This document shows positions 3,358 through 25,741 of a DNA stretch of 25,741 nucleotides, piece after piece. Location of the stretch: IMG/VR virus record IMGVR_UViG_3300033141_000111, positions 1-25,741 of that record; one strand, given 5' to 3'. A program made the position numbers and the translations under genes. Position 1 is the first letter of the stretch; each line of letters begins with the position of its first letter. Origin of the DNA: a virus (lineage: Duplodnaviria > Caudoviricetes). The notes under the pieces were generated by a model, which was not told the origin of the DNA, ran no database searches, and was given only the letters and a program-made list of their open reading frames with translations.

Positions 3358-5112
3358 ATGAATATAAATTATAATACTAATAGCGCTTTTCCCAATCAGG
3401 TGGTACCTTTGGAGGAAAAATTAAGTATGAAGTATGGTAGTCAGGTTGCTGATGCTATACAATCAGAATGGTTTGCGCAAGGTAGAACTAATGGAAATAG
3501 GTATTTAACAACCTTTAACAATTATCACACTCGTAGATTATATGCTAGAGGTGAACAATCAACTCAAAAATATAAAGATGAATTATCTATAAATGGTGAT
3601 TTATCTTATTTAAACTTAGATTGGAAACCAGTGCCTATATTATCTAAATTTGTAGATATACTTACTAATGGTATTTCTAATAAAGATTATGATATAAAAG
3701 CTTATGCTAATGATCCTATGTCTGTTAAAAAGAGAACAGACTACGCTACTAGACTAGCTATGGATATGTATGGTCAAGATATTATAGAAGAAGTAAAAGC
3801 TACTACAGGACAAGATATATCACAAACAAATATACCAGCAGTTGATCTTCCTAAAACAATGGAAGAAATGGAACTTCATTTACAACTATCTTATAAACAA
3901 TCAATTGAGATAGCTGAAGAAGAAGCAATAACACAAACGTTAGATAAAAATAAATACGATTTACTTAAACGTAGGTTAAATTATGATCTAGTTACATTAG
4001 GTATTGCAGCTGCAAAAACAAATTTCAATACAGCTGAAGGTATAACTTTAGATTATGTTGATCCTGCTTATATGATTTATTCATATACAGAAGATCCTAA
4101 TTTTGAAGATATATATTATGTTGGAGAGGTTAAAGCTGTTACTATTCCAGAAATAAAACAACAATTTCCAAACATATCTGATGACGCGTTAGAAAAAATT
4201 CAAAAGTCTTATAGTAATAATAATTATATTTACGGTTGGGGTGCTTACGATGAAAACACTGTTCAAGTTTTATATTTTGAATATAAGACTTATATGGATC
4301 AAGTATTTAAAATAAAACATACAGATCAAGGTTTAGAAAAAGCATTAGAAAAACCAGATACTTTTAATCCACCAGAAAGTGATAATTTTAATAAAGTTTC
4401 AAGAAGTGTAGAGGTTTTATTTGAGGGTGTAAAAGTGTTAGGAACAGATATGATGCTTAGCTGGAAAATGGCTGAGAACATGACTAGGCCATTAGCTGAT
4501 ACAACTAAAGTAGAAATGAATTATGCTATTTGTGCACCTCGTATGTATAAAGGTAGAATAGAATCTATTGTTAGTAAAACTATAGGTTTTGCTGATATGA
4601 TACAATTAACTCATTTAAAACTACAACAGGTTATAGCTAGAATGGTTCCTGATGGTGTATTCTTAGACATGGATGGGTTAGCGGAAGTTGATTTAGGTAA
4701 TGGAACTAATTATAATCCAGCTGAAGCATTAAACATGTATTTTCAAACTGGTTCTGTAGTTGGTAGATCACTTACTCAAGATGGTACTATGAACGCTGGT
4801 AAAGTACCTGTTCAAGAATTATCCACCTCTTCAGGTCAAGCTAAAATAGGTTCTTTAATAAATACCTATAATTACTACGTACAAATGATACGGGATGTAA
4901 CAGGATTAAACGAAGCTAGAGATGGTAGTTTACCAGATAGAGATACTTTGGTTGGTTTACAAAAAATTGCAGCTCAACAGTCTAATATAGCGACTAAGCA
5001 TATTAACAATGCTAGTTTATATTTAACGTTAAGATTATGCGAGAATATATCTAAAAAATTAGTTGATGTTCTTAATTTTCCATTAACAGCTATGATTTTG
5101 GAATATTCTTAG
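3358..5112 (+). CDS. Portal protein, N-terminal part (reading frame broken near 5090)
   Basis: Abuts terL (TAAATG). Portal-like content: LNLDWKPVPILSKFVD, IRDVTGLNEARDGS. The last residues MILEYS* look out of frame. Confidence 0.85.
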   Translation: MNINYNTNSAFPNQVVPLEEKLSMKYGSQVADAIQSEWFAQGRTNGNRYLTTFNNYHTRRLYARGEQSTQKYKDELSINGDLSYLNLDWKPVPILSKFVDILTNGISNKDYDIKAYANDPMSVKKRTDYATRLAMDMYGQDIIEEVKATTGQDISQTNIPAVDLPKTMEEMELHLQLSYKQSIEIAEEEAITQTLDKNKYDLLKRRLNYDLVTLGIAAAKTNFNTAEGITLDYVDPAYMIYSYTEDPNFEDIYYVGEVKAVTIPEIKQQFPNISDDALEKIQKSYSNNNYIYGWGAYDENTVQVLYFEYKTYMDQVFKIKHTDQGLEKALEKPDTFNPPESDNFNKVSRSVEVLFEGVKVLGTDMMLSWKMAENMTRPLADTTKVEMNYAICAPRMYKGRIESIVSKTIGFADMIQLTHLKLQQVIARMVPDGVFLDMDGLAEVDLGNGTNYNPAEALNMYFQTGSVVGRSLTQDGTMNAGKVPVQELSTSSGQAKIGSLINTYNYYVQMIRDVTGLNEARDGSLPDRDTLVGLQKIAAQQSNIATKHINNASLYLTLRLCENISKKLVDVLNFPLTAMILEYS

Positions 5113-18043: not shown

Positions 18044-18775
18044 ATGGCAGTAGTAGCAGCAGTAGCAACAGCAGTTGTTGGAACAGCAGTAGGTGGTGCG
18101 GTCCAAGCGGGCAAGCAGCATAAAGCCATGCGTAGAGCTAGAAATGAAAAGGAAGCAGCTAAATGGAAAGTTGAAGAGCTTCAGGCTAGTAGGCAAGAAA
18201 TAACAAACCCTTTTGCGGGAGTACAATCGTTGTCTAGTATGGCTAGTGATTTATCTGGTCAAATGAGTAATCCTTATGCTAGTTTAGGTGTAGCAACTCA
18301 AGCTGCAGAAATACAAATGGAGCAAAGTGATATAGCTTTAGCTAATTCACTAGACACAGGAGCTAGTGCTGGTGGAGCAACTGCATTAGCACAAGCCGCA
18401 TTAAGAAGTAAAAAAGGTGTATCAGCTGGAATCGAAGCTCAAGAAGCAACTAATGAAAAACTAAGAGCAGAAGGTGAAGCTAAACTACAACAAGCAAAAA
18501 TAAGTGAACAACAAAGATTACAATCAATAGCAATCACAGAAGGACAAAGAGTTCAAGCTGCAGAGGCTCAAGGTAATATATTTGAGTTTCATGCTCAAGA
18601 AGATAGAACTAATGCTGATTTAGCTTATAATATTGCCAAAGAAACAGGTGCTCAACAAAGACAAGCACAAGCTAGAGCAAATAGAGATAGTGCTACATCT
18701 GGTATATTTACTAGTATAGCTTCAAGTGTTGCAACTGCTGGACTTACAGGAGGATTAGGTAATACTGGGCCATAA
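18044..18775 (+). CDS. Internal virion or ejection protein (small, P22 gp7/T7 gp14-like position)
   Basis: Hydrophobic A/V/G N-terminus, A/Q-rich coiled coil and G/A/S-rich hydrophobic C-terminus. Confidence 0.6.
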   Translation: MAVVAAVATAVVGTAVGGAVQAGKQHKAMRRARNEKEAAKWKVEELQASRQEITNPFAGVQSLSSMASDLSGQMSNPYASLGVATQAAEIQMEQSDIALANSLDTGASAGGATALAQAALRSKKGVSAGIEAQEATNEKLRAEGEAKLQQAKISEQQRLQSIAITEGQRVQAAEAQGNIFEFHAQEDRTNADLAYNIAKETGAQQRQAQARANRDSATSGIFTSIASSVATAGLTGGLGNTGP

Positions 18776-18811
18776 ACAAGATTGATGTTGAATTTAAAAG
18801 AATAAGTTAAT

Positions 18812-19129
18812 ATGGGATATAGAATACCACCACCAGACTTTGTATTACCGCCTATGCAGATAAACGTTGCCGCAGAAATGGGTAGAACATTTGCTGCAGG
18901 TATAGACAAAATAGCGGCTTACAATAGAGAGCAAAAAGAAAAAGCTAAGAAGCTTCAAGATACTCAAAACGCTTTTAAGAATCAATTAATATTACAGCAA
19001 AATGAATTAAAGAATAGTTATTTTAAATCATTAGATAAAGCTGGTATAAATGATGATCCTGAAAAAGAAAATGAATTGTTTGATGTCAAATTGTTACTGA
19101 TTTTAAATCTTATTCTGAAAGTAGTTTAA
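18812..19129 (+). CDS. Internal virion or ejection protein, N-terminal part (frame break near 19085)
   Basis: Ejection-protein-like N-terminus with coiled coil. The tail VKLLLILNLILKVV* looks out of frame. Confidence 0.6.
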   Translation: MGYRIPPPDFVLPPMQINVAAEMGRTFAAGIDKIAAYNREQKEKAKKLQDTQNAFKNQLILQQNELKNSYFKSLDKAGINDDPEKENELFDVKLLLILNLILKVV

Positions 19130-20364
19130 CTCAAATGGGTGGGGTGTTAGCTGATTCAGAGCTTGTTCTTAATAATGATTACGTAGTAGTAGGAGATCCT
19201 ATGAATGGTGAGCAAATAAGCAACACGCTTGCATTACAAAATATAAATGGTGTTAACGCTAAAACATTTGATCCTAATGCTATAACAAGTAGAAAACTAA
19301 CTACTAAAGGCAATCAAAACGTGGTTACTTCTACTGTTAAAATACCTGTAAATTCTAATTATTTTAAAAAGGTAAATAAAGACGGAGGAGGAGATGGCGC
19401 AAATATAATACTACAAAATGGTGTAGACGCTGGAATTATTAAAACAGAAAATATAGATGGTAAGGATTACTATGTATTTAAAAGTGATATAAATGTTTCT
19501 AACTATTCTACTAAAGGTGGAATGGATTTAGTACAAGAAAAATTACCTACATTAAAATCTGATGACACGTTGACTGAATTAGGGTATTTACAATCTGATG
19601 GCGCATTTGCTAAAAGTTACGTTTCAAAAGATGAAGTTATAACTCAAGAAATTGAAAAAGATTTAGATGGTAATTCTACTGGATATAAAAAACAAGTAGG
19701 CTATAAGATTATAGACGTTGGATCTATGGTTGAAAATAAAGCTTATATAGACATGTTAAATGTTGAGTATGGTAGTGTTTTTAAAGATACGTCTAGATCA
19801 GAAGCTCAAAGACAACAGTATTTAGTTGATATAGGTATACCCATGAATCTTAAATCATTCAATAAGTTAACTGAAGCAGAAAGACAGCAAACCGTTACCG
19901 CGGCTATAGAAAGAAAAATGTGGACAGGTTATTTTCCTGCTAAATATAAATCATCAGGTAGACTACCTCAACAAGTTCAAGTGAAATTAGATGAATCTCC
20001 AGAAGGTGTGGCATTACTAAAGCAATTAAATGATATAGGTTATAAAAACCCTTCAACAGGAAAACTTTATAAACAAGGTGACTATGCTTATGTAATTAGA
20101 GAAGAGCAAAGCAGATCTATATCTGAGGATTCTACTGAAAGAATAGATGCTTACTCTGCTTTCTTGAAAAAATCAGATGAACAAATATTGAGTGACTTAG
20201 CAAGTATTCCTTTGTCAGTTTCTAATAGAGGAAGTTTTTACGCTAGAGATGGTAAAATATATTTGAACAAAGGTGGTGATGATCGTACAAACGATAAAGT
20301 AATTCCAATGAACATGTTTAGAGATGCTTTAACAACAGCTAGCTCTACAGAAAGAAATAAATAA
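19084..20364 (+). CDS. Internal virion or ejection protein, C-terminal part (-1 frame continuation; track start 19135)
   Basis: Frame opens at 19084 (CQIVTDFKSYSESSLTQMGG...) with normal codon usage upstream of the ATG at 19135. Confidence 0.6.
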   Translation, partial: CQIVTDFKSYSESSLTQMGGVLADSELVLNNDYVVVGDPMNGEQISNTLALQNINGVNAKTFDPNAITSRKLTTKGNQNVVTSTVKIPVNSNYFKKVNKDGGGDGANIILQNGVDAGIIKTENIDGKDYYVFKSDINVSNYSTKGGMDLVQEKLPTLKSDDTLTELGYLQSDGAFAKSYVSKDEVITQEIEKDLDGNSTGYKKQVGYKIIDVGSMVENKAYIDMLNVEYGSVFKDTSRSEAQRQQYLVDIGIPMNLKSFNKLTEAERQQTVTAAIERKMWTGYFPAKYKSSGRLPQQVQVKLDESPEGVALLKQLNDIGYKNPSTGKLYKQGDYAYVIREEQSRSISEDSTERIDAYSAFLKKSDEQILSDLASIPLSVSNRGSFYARDGKIYLNKGGDDRTNDKVIPMNMFRDALTTASSTERNK

Positions 20365-20370
20365 TATTAT

Positions 20371-23300
20371 ATGTACAAGTATAACGGAAACACGTATAGC
20401 TTAGAAGACTTAAAAATAGTTCTAGGTGTAGAAGAAATTACTCAAGATATTCTAGCTCAGTACGGTATAACTGAGGCAGAAGAAGAAGTTAAAATAGACC
20501 CACCAACTACAACAGTAGACGAAGTGGGAAAGAGCAACGATGTTGTAGAAGATGCGATTGCAACATCAGACGAAGAAAGAGCATCGATGTTGGAATTAGA
20601 ATTGGAGCGTATTTCATCGGAATTAGAAAAGATAGATCCATATAAAGACGCAGAAACAGTTACATATAAATCTTTTGGTGGTTATGAGCAGAAACAAATA
20701 GGTGTAGATAATGCTGCTTTAAAAAAAGAACAAGAGTTAAAAGAAAAAAGAAAGAAAACAAAAGACGAACTAGAAAGAGTTTTATTTAACATAGGTCCTA
20801 ATATAGATATACCAGCTACTTTAGTTAGTTCAGATGAGGAAGCTGTAGAAAAATATCTACGCCAACAAGTACCGTGGGCTAGGGTAGAACAAACAGACGC
20901 TGGCGATGGGGTTAATATATATATTGACGAAGATTTTTATGGTTTTGGTGAAGGTGAAATACCAGATTGGATGCAGAAACCTAGATCAGAAGGTGAACCT
21001 ATATATATAAATTTACAACCTAATACAGACGAAGGTAGAGAAATAGCTATTGATCAATTTAAAAGAATAAATGCGTTTGGTAATGCTTTAAGTCCAGACG
21101 CTAAAAGAGATTATACTTTAGATGTTGCTATAGCAAAAATGGAAGAACTTAAAGATCCTTCTGACTTAAATTATTTATTAAAAGGTACTGGTTATAGAAT
21201 CGATTATGAAAAAACATATAAAGATTCTGGCATGAAAACAAGAGAGGAAGACGATGCTATTATGCTTCCTGAACATAACTATGTTTTAGTAAAAGATGGT
21301 AGTGCAGAGACATTAGATTTTGGAATAGAAAATGATGGCGAACCTATTGTAGTAGCAAGTGATATAGAAGGTATAAGAACTACATTAAAAGATAATATTG
21401 TAGGTAGTGAATTGTATGAGACAATTATAAGTAATAACGCTTTTGAAGCTCAAAAAGATTTTCTACTAGCTAAACACGAAGCTCTTGAAAAAGAAAAAGA
21501 AAGAATAACAAATTCTCCAGATCTTACTTTAGATTATTTTGAAGATCAATTTGAAAAAGATTTACTAGAAGCTTTAGGTTATAAAAATAAAAAAGAAGCA
21601 TACCAAGACCCTAGCGTTAGACCTTTGCTAGATCACTTTAGTTCTTTAACAAAAGCCACAAGGCCTGGTGCTGTACCTACTTATGGTACTAATCTAACAA
21701 TGAAATTACTTAGGTTTTTAACAGGAACTGAAGAAGCATCAGAGACGGATAAAAGAAAAAACAGAATATCAGCTTATCAAAATCTTGGTGATTTACCTGA
21801 AGATTTACAACAAAGATTAATAGATGCTGGATTTGGAGGGGATAACTCTAAGTTTTTACAAGACAATATAAACAAATATGCTCATAATCAACTAATAAAT
21901 AAAAGTGATAAAATAATAGAGGGGGTTATGAAAAGAAGCGGTAATCAATCTCTTATTAGATTATCTCAAAGGTTTTTAGAAGTTGACGAAAATATTTTTA
22001 AAGAAGAGCTTGATAAAAAAGTAAAGACGGTTCAAAAAATAGATGATCAGTATAGAAAATTATTTGCTCAAAGAGGGAAGAATATTGAGAAGATGTTGCC
22101 AAAAGGTGCTGAGTTTGAAATATCAACGCTAGGTGGTGTTACTCAATTGAATTTAAAATACGATGGTGAATTAAACGAGTCTCAACAAAAAGCTTTCGAT
22201 AAAGCCCAAGACGAATTAATGGACTTACAGTATGTCATGGGTATTTATCAGCAAGATTATGCTGGTACTATGCGAAACATACAAACTGAAATTGCTGAAT
22301 ACTATGCTCAAGGTAGAGGTGTAGATGAAAGCACTTTTGATTTTGCTGCTAAAGATTATGACTTAAGTAGTATTTTAGCTAAAGATATTGGTGATAGTTT
22401 TAAAAGTGTTTTCTTAACCGTACCTACATTACTAGGTGAAGACAGTGCTGTATTAGAACAAGAGAGAATGAATCAGAAGAATCAACTCTTTGAAACAATG
22501 ATAGACTATGATGATGGTAATTTTTTAAGATATGCTATAAGAACTACTGGTCAACAGTCTGCTAATTTAACCTTAGCAATAGGTACAGCTGGTGCTGGTA
22601 GCGCTTTGGGTTTAACAAACGCTGTAACTAGAGTCGCAATAGGTACTACATTTGGTTTAACTAGTGGTACTCAAACGTTTAGAGATCTTAAAACTCAGCA
22701 GGAAATATACGACTACGCTGTATTGAAAGGTAAGCAAGCTGATAGAGCTTTACGTGAAGGTATAATAGGTCAATATGAACATACTCAAATAATGCTTGAT
22801 GTAAATAAAACTAAAGCAATGGGTAGACTTACTGATAATCAAATTATAGGAGCTAGCTGGGCAAACGGTTTTATAGAAGGTACAATTACTACAGCGGTAG
22901 GTACAGCTCCTAACTCTATAAAACTATTAAAAGATTTTAAAGCACCGACAAAATTAACTGAAATAGGTAAAAACTTATTTAAAAGTGATGTTACTAAGTT
23001 GTATAACTTTATTGGTAAACCAATTGGTCAAAGAGTTGGTGGTGAAATTTTAGAAGAAGAATTAATATATGGTGGTCAACAGTTTTTTACTGAGTATGGT
23101 ATACTAGGTAGAGACTTTGATTTAAGTAATTGGGATGATGTTGCTGTAGCTTCATTAGTAGTTAGTGGTGTTAGTCAAGGTCCTGGGGTTGGTTATTCTG
23201 GTATAATGACATATGGCGCAACTGCAAAATATGAATCAGCTATAAACAAGCTAAGAATAAACACTCAAAATTTAAACTCTATACTAGCAGATCCTAACAA

Positions 23301-25332
23301 CAACTTAACAGATAAACAAAGAAAAGATTTAATTTTTAGTATTGCTGAAAATTTAAAAGAACAAGGTTTAGAAACAGATAAGCTTTCTATTGATGTTATG
23401 AACTTAGGTTCTGATAATGTAAAAAGATTAATAGGTAATTCTATAATAAAACAAGACCTATTAAAACAAGCTGGGGTAACTCCTGACATGAATGATGTTC
23501 AACAAGCAGAGGTGTTAAACTCTTATAAAAAAAGTTTAAAAGAAAGTAATCCTCAAGCTTTAGAAGATTTTAATAATCAGCTAAATGCTATTGATACTCA
23601 AATAAACAATATTAAAAAGAAAGTTGAAAGTCCTGGTAGTTATAAAAGAGCTAAAGAATCTTTGGGTAATATATACAATGTATATGATGCTCAATATAAA
23701 AGAGAAGGTAGAGTTTTTGATAGTGAGTCAGATAAATTAGCAACAATTTTAGAAGATATTAGACAAGATATAAACACTTCTAACATAGATAAAGCTAAAG
23801 CAAATCCTGAAATAGCTGAAACCGTAGAAAATATAAGAGTAGATAAAGAAGGTAACGAACGCTACACTAAGTCCGGCGAAAGTGATAAGAGGTTTAAACC
23901 TTTAAACGACGCACAGAAAGACGCTATGTATTCCGATTTCGGTAGATTAATAACATTAAATTCTGCTAGAGGAGTTGCTAATAAAATAAACATAGAAACA
24001 TCTGTACAATCTATATTAGGCGATGATGTTAAACTAGAAGTTGCTAGTTGGAAAACTAAAGAAGATCTAGAAGCATTGTTAGAAAATGAAATAAAAGATA
24101 AACAAGAAAGATTAGATGCTTTTACTAAATTAAATGATGGTAAAGTATTTGGCTTAATTGTTGGTAATAAAATTATAACTCAAAACGAAAAGCAAGCTCA
24201 AGAAGATTTAGACAAAGGAATTGTAAGAGCTGGTACGGTTGTACTTCATGAATTAAACCACGCTATTGATGATGGGCGTATTAACACTGCTGAAGGTAAA
24301 TTAAACTACGCAACAAACTTATTTAAAGCTGCTAGCGAAAGTGATAACGCTCAATTAAAAGCTTTACATAGTTATACCATGAATTTATTAAATGGTATAT
24401 ACGGGCCAAGAGGAGAAACATTTGAAAACAGTGAAACATTTAGAGATGAATACACAAAGTATCTTCAAGAACAGGCTTTTGCTTATGAAGATCAACTACA
24501 ATTAGAAAAAGACGAGAGCAGTTTAATAAAAGCTTTTAACAGTATTACTACAAATGCTAATGCTTTAAACACACCTCAAAAAGCTTTAAACTACATGGTG
24601 GCTAATAACTCTGGATTTAGATCTGGTAAGTTAAGTAAAAAATCTCAAAATGCTTTAAAGAATAGAAAAGAAGGTGAACTTAAGTTTTCTGAAAAAAATA
24701 TAAATGATCTTGCTGTAAAGTATAAAGCTGGTGAATTAAATGCAGAGCAGACTATGGATTTCTATAATCAATATAGAAATACAGCGTTAGCAGCTATGGG
24801 CTTTGATACTCGTAAAGGTGATATACCAACCGACAAGGCTTTAGGTTTTGCAACCGATGCTTTCGGTAGAGTAACTAGAACTTACAAGCCAGAAGATGGA
24901 TCATTCACTAACTGGATATATAACACTATAGGTAGAGAAGGTAGAGCTAAAATAGGTCAAGAAATAGAACGTAAAAAAGCTACGTCACGTATTAGCGAAG
25001 CTCAAGAACAAACAAGGTTGAAGTCTACAGAAACTGCAGAAACAGGATTAGAACTAGAAGAAAGAGCCGCGCGTGAAAAGAAAGCCGAACTAAAACTAAT
25101 TAACCCGTTAAAGTCAAAAGAAGTTGCTAGAAATATAAAAGAGATTGAAGCTGCAGTTGCTATTACACCATCTAAAGCACCTATAGCTGACTTTAAGAAT
25201 ATATCTCAAGACTTCGGAGGAAAGGTTGCTAGTATAATTTTTAATGTCCCAGAAACAAAAATCACTGATGGCACTAAAAACCTTACTTACGCTAAAAAAA
25301 TTGTTGATGGTATAATGAAAAAGTTACTGTAA
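20371..25332 (+). CDS. Giant internal virion or polyvalent ejection protein with membrane-inserting segments, zincin HExxH and sigma-region-2-like segment
   Basis: 1653 aa. G/A/T-rich hydrophobic helices at about 22560-23220, VVLHELNH at 24238-24261 with a later DE (FRDEY), and RTYKPEDGSFTNWIYNTI. Continues in the -1 frame after about 25310. Confidence 0.75.
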   Translation: MYKYNGNTYSLEDLKIVLGVEEITQDILAQYGITEAEEEVKIDPPTTTVDEVGKSNDVVEDAIATSDEERASMLELELERISSELEKIDPYKDAETVTYKSFGGYEQKQIGVDNAALKKEQELKEKRKKTKDELERVLFNIGPNIDIPATLVSSDEEAVEKYLRQQVPWARVEQTDAGDGVNIYIDEDFYGFGEGEIPDWMQKPRSEGEPIYINLQPNTDEGREIAIDQFKRINAFGNALSPDAKRDYTLDVAIAKMEELKDPSDLNYLLKGTGYRIDYEKTYKDSGMKTREEDDAIMLPEHNYVLVKDGSAETLDFGIENDGEPIVVASDIEGIRTTLKDNIVGSELYETIISNNAFEAQKDFLLAKHEALEKEKERITNSPDLTLDYFEDQFEKDLLEALGYKNKKEAYQDPSVRPLLDHFSSLTKATRPGAVPTYGTNLTMKLLRFLTGTEEASETDKRKNRISAYQNLGDLPEDLQQRLIDAGFGGDNSKFLQDNINKYAHNQLINKSDKIIEGVMKRSGNQSLIRLSQRFLEVDENIFKEELDKKVKTVQKIDDQYRKLFAQRGKNIEKMLPKGAEFEISTLGGVTQLNLKYDGELNESQQKAFDKAQDELMDLQYVMGIYQQDYAGTMRNIQTEIAEYYAQGRGVDESTFDFAAKDYDLSSILAKDIGDSFKSVFLTVPTLLGEDSAVLEQERMNQKNQLFETMIDYDDGNFLRYAIRTTGQQSANLTLAIGTAGAGSALGLTNAVTRVAIGTTFGLTSGTQTFRDLKTQQEIYDYAVLKGKQADRALREGIIGQYEHTQIMLDVNKTKAMGRLTDNQIIGASWANGFIEGTITTAVGTAPNSIKLLKDFKAPTKLTEIGKNLFKSDVTKLYNFIGKPIGQRVGGEILEEELIYGGQQFFTEYGILGRDFDLSNWDDVAVASLVVSGVSQGPGVGYSGIMTYGATAKYESAINKLRINTQNLNSILADPNNNLTDKQRKDLIFSIAENLKEQGLETDKLSIDVMNLGSDNVKRLIGNSIIKQDLLKQAGVTPDMNDVQQAEVLNSYKKSLKESNPQALEDFNNQLNAIDTQINNIKKKVESPGSYKRAKESLGNIYNVYDAQYKREGRVFDSESDKLATILEDIRQDINTSNIDKAKANPEIAETVENIRVDKEGNERYTKSGESDKRFKPLNDAQKDAMYSDFGRLITLNSARGVANKINIETSVQSILGDDVKLEVASWKTKEDLEALLENEIKDKQERLDAFTKLNDGKVFGLIVGNKIITQNEKQAQEDLDKGIVRAGTVVLHELNHAIDDGRINTAEGKLNYATNLFKAASESDNAQLKALHSYTMNLLNGIYGPRGETFENSETFRDEYTKYLQEQAFAYEDQLQLEKDESSLIKAFNSITTNANALNTPQKALNYMVANNSGFRSGKLSKKSQNALKNRKEGELKFSEKNINDLAVKYKAGELNAEQTMDFYNQYRNTALAAMGFDTRKGDIPTDKALGFATDAFGRVTRTYKPEDGSFTNWIYNTIGREGRAKIGQEIERKKATSRISEAQEQTRLKSTETAETGLELEERAAREKKAELKLINPLKSKEVARNIKEIEAAVAITPSKAPIADFKNISQDFGGKVASIIFNVPETKITDGTKNLTYAKKIVDGIMKKLL
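20526..20585 (+). promoter_or_regulatory. Putative -1 programmed ribosomal frameshift signal (G_GGA_AAG plus H-type pseudoknot)
   Basis: In-frame heptamer 20526-20532, 6-nt spacer, stem 1 20539-20548 / 20558-20567, stem 2 GATGC 20551-20555 / GCATC 20581-20585. Confidence 0.75.
20532..20645 (+). CDS. -1 transframe segment EQRCCRRCDCNIRRRKSIDVGIRIGAYFIGIRKDRSI* (gives a 91-aa product with residues 1-54 of the giant gene)
   Basis: The -1 frame is open 20493-20645 with no ATG, GTG or TTG, so it is most simply reached by slippage. Confidence 0.6.
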   Translation, partial: EQRCCRRCDCNIRRRKSIDVGIRIGAYFIGIRKDRSI

Positions 25333-25741
25333 CAAGAGACGTGCAAGGTAGATCATTAGGCTTACCTAATAGGATTATAAAATACTTTTATGAAGATACG
25401 GGTAAAAGATCTAGAGGTACAACTTCTCAAACAAAAGTATATAAAAAGAAAAAGAAATTTAATAACCCTACTTCTCAAGTTTTAAAAGAAGTACAGCGTG
25501 AGATGGGTATAACTCCAGCTAGAGAGTTAAATAAATATGACAGAACAATAGGTCAATTTTTAAAAGGTTTTGCTAAAGTAAAAGGTGCAGTTGCTTCAGT
25601 TGCTGTAGCTAAAAACAAGGTAAAAGCTATGGACTTGAAAACTGCTAAAGGTAAAAAACAAATCGAAGCAGATGTTGGTGCTGGTAGATCTCGTGTTCAG
25701 TTTAGTGAAAAAGCAAAAGTTAGAAGAGCGTTTGATTTAGA
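25308..25741 (+). CDS. Continuation of giant ejection protein in the -1 frame (runs off the window)
   Basis: Frame is open from 25308 to the window end: YNEKVTVTRDVQGRSLGLPNRIIKYFYEDTGKRSRG...RVQFSEKAKVRRAFDL, with normal codon usage. Confidence 0.75.

Follow-up and report, generated by a model that had tools for sequence, protein, structure and literature searches.

A putative −1 frameshift site and pseudoknot near the start of a giant phage gene predict a short protein with a conserved tail

Introduction

GGGAAAG is the slip site of the lambda gpG/gpGT pair. That pair and the marine phage locus described here have in common the class of heptamer, the −1 direction, a shared N-terminus and a place in the structural region of a tailed phage (PMC5009743). 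In lambda the shift lies near the end of a short gene and leads to a longer product, whereas here it would lie at codon 54 of about 3,100 and lead to a shorter one. The shift near the gene end and the longer fusion that characterize tail assembly chaperones of the G/GT kind are absent, and no PHROGs or Pfam match to a tail-chaperone family was obtained in the window (the whole 25,741-nt stretch of DNA that we analyzed).

Other phage cases, described for T3, T7 gene 10, A2, A118 and PSA, extend capsid or tail-tube proteins (PMC5009743). They resemble our locus in that a virion structural gene is frameshifted to give two products, but they add a C-terminal extension near the gene end, while here more than 95% of the protein would be cut off. 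The dnaX tau/gamma pair is obtained through a ribosomal shift on A_AAA_AAG in E. coli and through slippage on a run of 9 in Thermus thermophilus (PMC5009743). One long/short pair is thus made by two mechanisms according to lineage, as may be the case for the pseudoknot sites and A-runs reported below. On the other hand, gamma ends about 1 codon past the shift with no new conserved domain, and its stimulator is a stem-loop.

The short product of copA is essentially the N-terminal metal-binding domain. In E. coli a slippery site and an mRNA pseudoknot yield this product, CopA(Z), beside the large one (PMC7558416). Our locus likewise has a site and pseudoknot near the gene start and a small predicted N-terminal product besides a large protein; it differs in being a phage gene and in that the new frame adds a conserved 37-residue tail. 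A literature search that covered mainly openly available main texts turned up no account of frameshifting in this giant gene. The mechanism is not new, but its setting, the conservation of a transframe tail and the swapping of one recoding device for another seem not to have been described before.

Results

The giant gene and its neighborhood

The window corresponds to a virus record of 25.7 kb with a completeness of 42%. Terminase, portal and capsid-type genes are present, as are genes for tail structural proteins. The giant gene (20371..25332, + strand) encodes 1653 aa in the window. The preliminary description of this DNA gave the protein as >1650 aa; its full length in intact near-identical records is about 3,100 aa (P0001). 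The window copy is short of about 39 codons, with a frame change near 25314 (25314-25341, residues 1650-1688 absent). Short stretches present in relatives are missing elsewhere too: about 27 codons, with a frame change, from the portal gene (5079-5112), 7 residues from the pilot-like gene (about 18330-18370), and residues 92-126, with a frame change, from the gene after it (19084-19135). These gaps are probably assembly artefacts.

Two genes precede the giant on the + strand (18044..20364), a 243-aa pilot-like gene and a second gene that encodes 551 aa in a relative (L004) and is split in the window. The giant closes a group of three genes that follows the tail genes, the position expected of an ejection protein, and this part of its earlier designation as an “ejection protein” stands. 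No match in sequence or structure to a characterized member was obtained: Pfam matched none of the five proteins searched (0/5; giant, neighbors and N-terminal module), a PDB sequence search with P0001 gave no match, and neither did tblastn of P0001 against the giant virion proteins of cultured relatives. The designation is therefore a putative one, based on gene order and from the virion annotation of gp123, the positional counterpart in phage phi18:3. The only PHROG match in P0001 was a kinase/HAD-like domain at residues 2176-2364 (PHROG 415). By eye it also contains an HExxH motif (about residue 1300) and a sigma-factor-like stretch (1480-1540), features that we take to be reminiscent of polyvalent proteins.

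The giant begins with an acidic module of 52 aa (20371..20526, + strand; net charge −9) that would be common to both predicted products. Among relatives its place is taken by several unrelated types. One of these, a two-helix module (P0009 type), also begins genes in GC-rich phages where the element described below is absent (L257-L269, L272 and L276), and it is a widespread stand-alone module.

A slippery heptamer and an H-type pseudoknot

At codons 52-54 of the giant ORF lies the in-frame heptamer G_GGA_AAG (20526..20532, + strand), an X_XXY_YYZ site of the kind used for −1 programmed frameshifting and the sole copy of GGGAAAG on the + strand of the window. It is followed by the 6-nt spacer AGCAAC (20533..20538), within the 5-9 nt typical of such sites, and then by a predicted pseudoknot. 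Stem 1 and its loop occupy 20539..20567, with 20539-48 paired to 20558-67 (10 bp, 2 G-U, −9.8 kcal/mol), and the loop carries the 5′ strand of stem 2 (20551-55). A 13-nt purine-rich loop (20568-80) and the 3′ strand of stem 2 (20581-85) complete the structure (20568..20585), as folding and covariation indicate. Stem 2 has 5 bp with a duplex energy of −4.9, near the weak end of the family range.

These coordinates and pairs agree with those first described, as does the use of rare codons throughout the element (about codons 52-72). Compared with the rest of the giant gene, GTG makes up 3% of Val codons and AAG 19% of Lys codons, and AGC, GCG and TCG account for 8/82, 4/118 and 0/82, respectively.

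We scored the sequence downstream of all 66 in-frame X_XXY_YYZ heptamers in 17 ORFs with a pseudoknot score of our own, a heuristic, and G_GGA_AAG ranked first (−18.8; runner-up −15.9). Among 500 synonymous recodings 10 matched this score, and one left the −1 frame open for 30 codons. The nested fold of 20526-20600 alone was unremarkable (z −1.73) and lacked stem 1. In windows ending at 20590-20600 stem 1 had a competitor, and the pair probability of stem 1 itself was 0.08-0.4 in 6 of 8 of these windows, compared to about 0.99 in most other windows. Contigs from four public runs, one of which may be the source of the record, contained no variant letters over 20300-20900. The nearest relative differs at three positions within 20526-86, and each change gains a base pair. 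An Rfam search of 20000-21200 gave five matches (E 1.6-7), all scoring well under the gathering threshold and all located off the element. A scan of 20300-20800 gave no sigma-70-type promoter or terminator match, Bacteroidota promoters being outside its models.

The element is conserved and both stems covary

Relatives were fetched through the upstream 243-aa gene, that is, independently of the element. This gave 226 loci, from which 65 incomplete ones were removed; the remaining 161 had a readable giant start, and 113 were distinct at <97% identity. Searches with the giant's own N-terminus and with the second upstream gene gave one locus and none, respectively. A second sample (L241-L276) came from tail-containing queries and hence provides no independent count.

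The element is kept in 101 of the 113 distinct relatives, namely at 98 sites, for which an open −1 frame and a pseudoknot score of −15 were required, and in three more where the tail was recognized by profile. A score of −20 or lower after an in-frame Y_YYN site was reached in 81/113 giants compared to 4/113 upstream genes. Out-of-frame control sites in the giants reached it in 36/113 and 26/113, which is not low, probably because the same pseudoknot is reached from them.

The slip sites of the 98 relatives are G_GGA_AAG (24), A_GUA_AAG (15), G_GAU_UUU (11), A_GAU_UUU (8), A_GCA_AAG (6), A_AAA_AAG (6), A_AAU_UUU (5), U_GAU_UUU (4) and others (19). The strict X_XXY_YYZ form occurs at 39/98 and the remainder have the A-site tetramer form; for A_GUA_AAG, A_GCA_AAG and U_GAU_UUU, P-site re-pairing would be poor. 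The encoded 0-frame residues vary (GK, VK, AK, KK, DF, NF, SF, GN) while slipperiness is kept, and the distance to stem 1 is 5-6 nt in 82/98. A count that used neither slip site nor fold gave a similar picture: an in-frame A_AAG or U_UUU lies 5-11 codons upstream of a −1 frame CxC in 83/91 genes, compared to 473/3440 background windows (13.8%).

To assess covariation we used a sequence-only MAFFT alignment of the window and 98 distinct rows. Stem cells were paired in 88.8% of cases, compared to 74.4% in shuffled alignments and 24-51% in slid registers, and two-sided changes were found in 235 cells compared to 70 shuffled. In stem 1, 91% of cells were paired, with two-sided changes in 9/9 pairs; in stem 2 the corresponding values were 85% and 6/6. 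These figures are not probabilities, since the rows are related and were chosen after a pseudoknot prediction. As both stems covary, a simple hairpin is insufficient as an explanation, and the compensatory changes in both argue for an H-type pseudoknot. Conservation of the heptamer and covariation of the stems had been proposed as a check on the original reading of the locus as a −1 frameshift cassette. With the element in 101/113 relatives and compensatory changes in 15/15 pairs, conservation, covariation, spacing and frame all lend that reading strong support.

In 12 of the 113 relatives, spread across a quick tree, the element is absent. These loci (L028, L030, L035-L037, L049, L068, L089, L140, L190, L194 and L198) have no slip site, pseudoknot or tail and could serve as controls provided by nature; in L049, codon 39 carries an A9 run, where no alternative frame is open. 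We searched five element-less records for a tail elsewhere in the genome. The positive controls matched and the two complete genomes had none, so the element seems dispensable in some lineages.

The −1 frame encodes a conserved tail

The −1 frame ORF (20526..20645, + strand) has no start codon and runs for 39 codons to a TAA at 20643-45. The preliminary description had the shift truncate the protein at residue 54. Instead, the predicted product is 91 aa long (10.5 kDa), with 37 new residues after Gly-Lys that carry a net charge of +8. The junction peptide proposed for mass spectrometry would be cleaved by trypsin at K54. The tail contains a cysteine cluster, CCxxCxC (20541..20561), which overlaps the pseudoknot and of which CxC is found in 93/98 relatives, and then, 3′ of the pseudoknot, an aromatic/glycine motif (20589..20624; consensus YGIxIGRxFFGI). 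Across relatives the predicted products are 69-143 aa long and the tails have a median net charge of +6.

Several observations point to selection on this frame. At 81 sites chosen on pseudoknot score alone, the −1 frame was open for at least 30 codons in 79, compared to 1.6 expected from synonymous recoding, and the +1 frame in 4. The tail motif occurred in 67/113 genes, always in the −1 frame, and was not seen in the upstream gene. Alignment of 23 disjoint pairs on their 0-frame protein gave second:third position differences of 144:163 for the overlap, compared to 266:579 for the flanks (p 2e-6), and of 66:88 for the tail alone (p 0.007). Pointing the other way, changes within the tail were synonymous more often in frame 0 (48/158) than in the −1 frame (30/155), the flanks giving 30/352 and 53/476. 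Frame 0 is still constrained within the overlap. The motif glycines are spread over all four codons while 0-frame residues change, the columns being partly fixed by the search pattern, and at the cysteine columns the U-G letters are constant, with variation confined to the partner or wobble base. Taken together, the alignments argue for a conserved tail of 37 residues, encoded in the −1 frame and subject to a constraint of its own.

A stop codon lies in the −1 frame at a median of 3 codons ahead of the slip site, and a start codon is present in only 1/98 relatives, so that entry into the frame would have to be via slippage. AlphaFold predicted a beta-hairpin for the tail motif with modest confidence (mean pLDDT 63, about 80 at residues 21-30), and the modeled hairpin is amphipathic.

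At six loci (L040, L054, L055, L059, L062 and L139) the site and pseudoknot are kept and the tail differs, being Phe/Trp/Arg-rich with no glycine pattern. Pfam searches with 78 tails gave just four weak single-member matches, and tblastn of one tail against annotated phages gave three chance matches at E 10. The tail was found in only 15 records among 1.84 billion representatives. We considered whether it might be a stand-alone gene for a short protein. The 15 tail-bearing database proteins are mostly fused in frame to an N-terminal module, and 9 of the 10 records looked up are single-member clusters, which we read as assembly indels; furthermore, the five loci matching one of them (P0012) have the ordinary two-frame layout. 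We therefore rejected a separate gene. P0015 and P0019, which cluster as a pair, each have module and tail in a single frame but differ in the middle; they could represent either a real in-frame form or two distinct indels.

Cultured relatives carry an A-run at the same place

Among annotated phages, those closest to the window are Elemovirus, Maribacter phage Panino, Pachyviridae and Pervagoviridae, with Flavobacteriia hosts, and the cultured relatives are podoviral (PMC8776804, PMC11590407). Their head and tail gene order is the same as in this phage, their capsid and terminase proteins are 42-47% and 30-63% identical, respectively, and the corresponding position of their giant gene also holds a slip-prone site. 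In contrast to the window, this site is an A9-A11 run, and the marine-type pseudoknot and the CxC are absent. Six complete genomes have a single + strand run of at least nine A within the 20-41 kb fetched, and it falls at the slip-site position; and a run of about 9 or more is present in 10/10 annotated relatives examined (these six and four more). The frame −1 to the giant is open for 24-44 codons after the run in the six genomes and encodes basic, aromatic, glycine-rich sequence. The tail profile weakly matched Panino (12 bits) and a Manatee Spring genome (9 bits). It gave no match to the phi18:3, phi38:1 and elemo tails, whose likeness was seen by eye. These data suggest homology between the cultured and marine tails.

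In five A9 genomes (Panino and four Pachyviridae) the N-terminal module and the giant are not in the same frame, and the two are annotated separately, split at an A9 that puts the giant in the −1 frame: L073:23310-23633 (phi18:3 gp122/gp123), L077, L078, L079 and L071:31577-31759 (Panino). This could reflect either obligatory slippage or homopolymer error. Panino was sequenced by MinION only (PMC11590407) and the four out-of-frame Cellulophaga genomes all come from one study. With homopolymer error a live explanation, we do not take the split as proof of obligatory slippage. The proposed recoding suggests that phi18:3 gp122 and gp123 may be one gene; gp123 is annotated from virion mass spectrometry and gp122, the N-terminal piece, has no such mark. 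In phi13:2 (L079:390-653) the module resembles that of Gundel by eye and the sequence from the A-run onward matches phi18:3, which suggests a module swap at the slip site.

Discussion

We propose, with a probability of roughly 0.8, that the slip site and H-type pseudoknot cause a share of ribosomes to shift into the −1 frame and make a 91-residue protein with a predicted role in building or loading the virion. Ribosomes would pause at the pseudoknot with the Gly and Lys tRNAs on GGA AAG, and the tRNAs would re-pair on GGG AAA. Shifted ribosomes would read 37 new codons and terminate at 20645, while unshifted ones would produce the protein of about 3,100 aa. G_GGA_AAG is highly shift-prone in E. 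coli (PMC5009743), the data coming from that species rather than from Bacteroidota. Translation of the −1 frame by way of this site is, in our estimate, very probable.

As to what the short protein does, we favor a role in assembling or loading the virion that is exerted through the shared module, and we would give this about an even chance. The module might direct both products to one site in the assembling head, and the more numerous short form might fill sites there or work through its hairpin tail; these are the most conjectural steps of the model. The preliminary description had proposed a truncation that fixes the ratio between two products. Two predicted products sharing an N-terminal domain are indeed what the locus would give, but that proposal missed the conserved tail.

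Alternatively, given a real frameshift, the short protein could work somewhere other than in the virion, for instance by binding metal, by assisting the giant as its chaperone, or at lysis as a cationic peptide that weakens the host envelope. The basic tail, its CxC in 93/98 relatives and the predicted amphipathic hairpin are consistent with such roles, lambda gpG and gpGT do not remain in the completed tail (PMC5009743), and it is gp123 of phi18:3, not gp122, that bears the virion mass spectrometry mark. The annotation of gp122 is split by frame, however, so the database search could have overlooked it. Moreover, although the N-terminal module of this virion-cluster gene is swapped among relatives, the tail has remained attached to it, and the tails of cultured relatives are without the cysteine cluster. 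We consider a role outside the virion possible but on the unlikely side.

It could also be speculated that a real frameshift serves only to lower the output of the giant, the short product being incidental and looking conserved because of the RNA structure. The cysteines do fall in the stems, the downstream motif of some members can by eye partly fold as a small UUCG-type hairpin, and 12/113 relatives have lost the element. For such a purpose an immediate stop would suffice, yet the frame is open at 79/81 sites. The aromatic/glycine motif lies outside the pseudoknot with its glycines on all four codons amid 0-frame change, and the cysteine columns hold U-G fixed, varying only at the partner or wobble base. 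Dosage control as the sole function is thus improbable.

A pseudoknot that serves mRNA stability, pausing or packaging, with the −1 frame unread, would fit the many imperfect heptamers, but it leaves unexplained why an in-frame A_AAG or U_UUU should lie at a fixed 5-6 nt, why the −1 frame is open and has a motif found in that frame only, and why cultured relatives have a lone A-run at the same spot, and we regard it as very unlikely. Least likely of all is entry into the −1 frame by RNA polymerase slippage or a separate start, since, although the A9-A11 relatives could use the former and runs of 9 A or T slip efficiently (PMC5009743), the slip site in the window has no run >3, compared to the ~9 or more A or T of the Thermus dnaX type, and there is no −1 frame start codon in the window or in 97/98 relatives and no sigma-70-type promoter match in the region scanned.

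Returning to the role in virion assembly or loading, we tentatively offer a broader reading, with a smaller chance of being correct. A large clade of Bacteroidota podoviruses may hide, within the giant gene's −1 frame, an unannotated virion protein of small size composed of a swappable head-targeting module and a beta-hairpin tail, in which the recoding device has been exchanged and the product kept. The marine clade would use a pseudoknot with several slip sites and the cultured families poly-A slippage, and in some Pachyviridae the full giant might be slippage-dependent as well. The short form would set the loading of a 350-kDa cargo or form a hairpin plug or collar for DNA ejection.

To our knowledge, few bacterial examples of pseudoknot-stimulated −1 shifting have been documented, and this family would provide about 100 natural variants of slip site and stems in a Bacteroidota setting. 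From the locus one would predict a protein, small and conserved, that has escaped gene callers, and the prediction is testable in the cultured relatives phi38:1, Calle, elemo and Gundel. If correct, it would point to a widespread class of phage recoding beyond the tail-chaperone and capsid cases, and it would bear on how podoviruses dose their giant cargo proteins.
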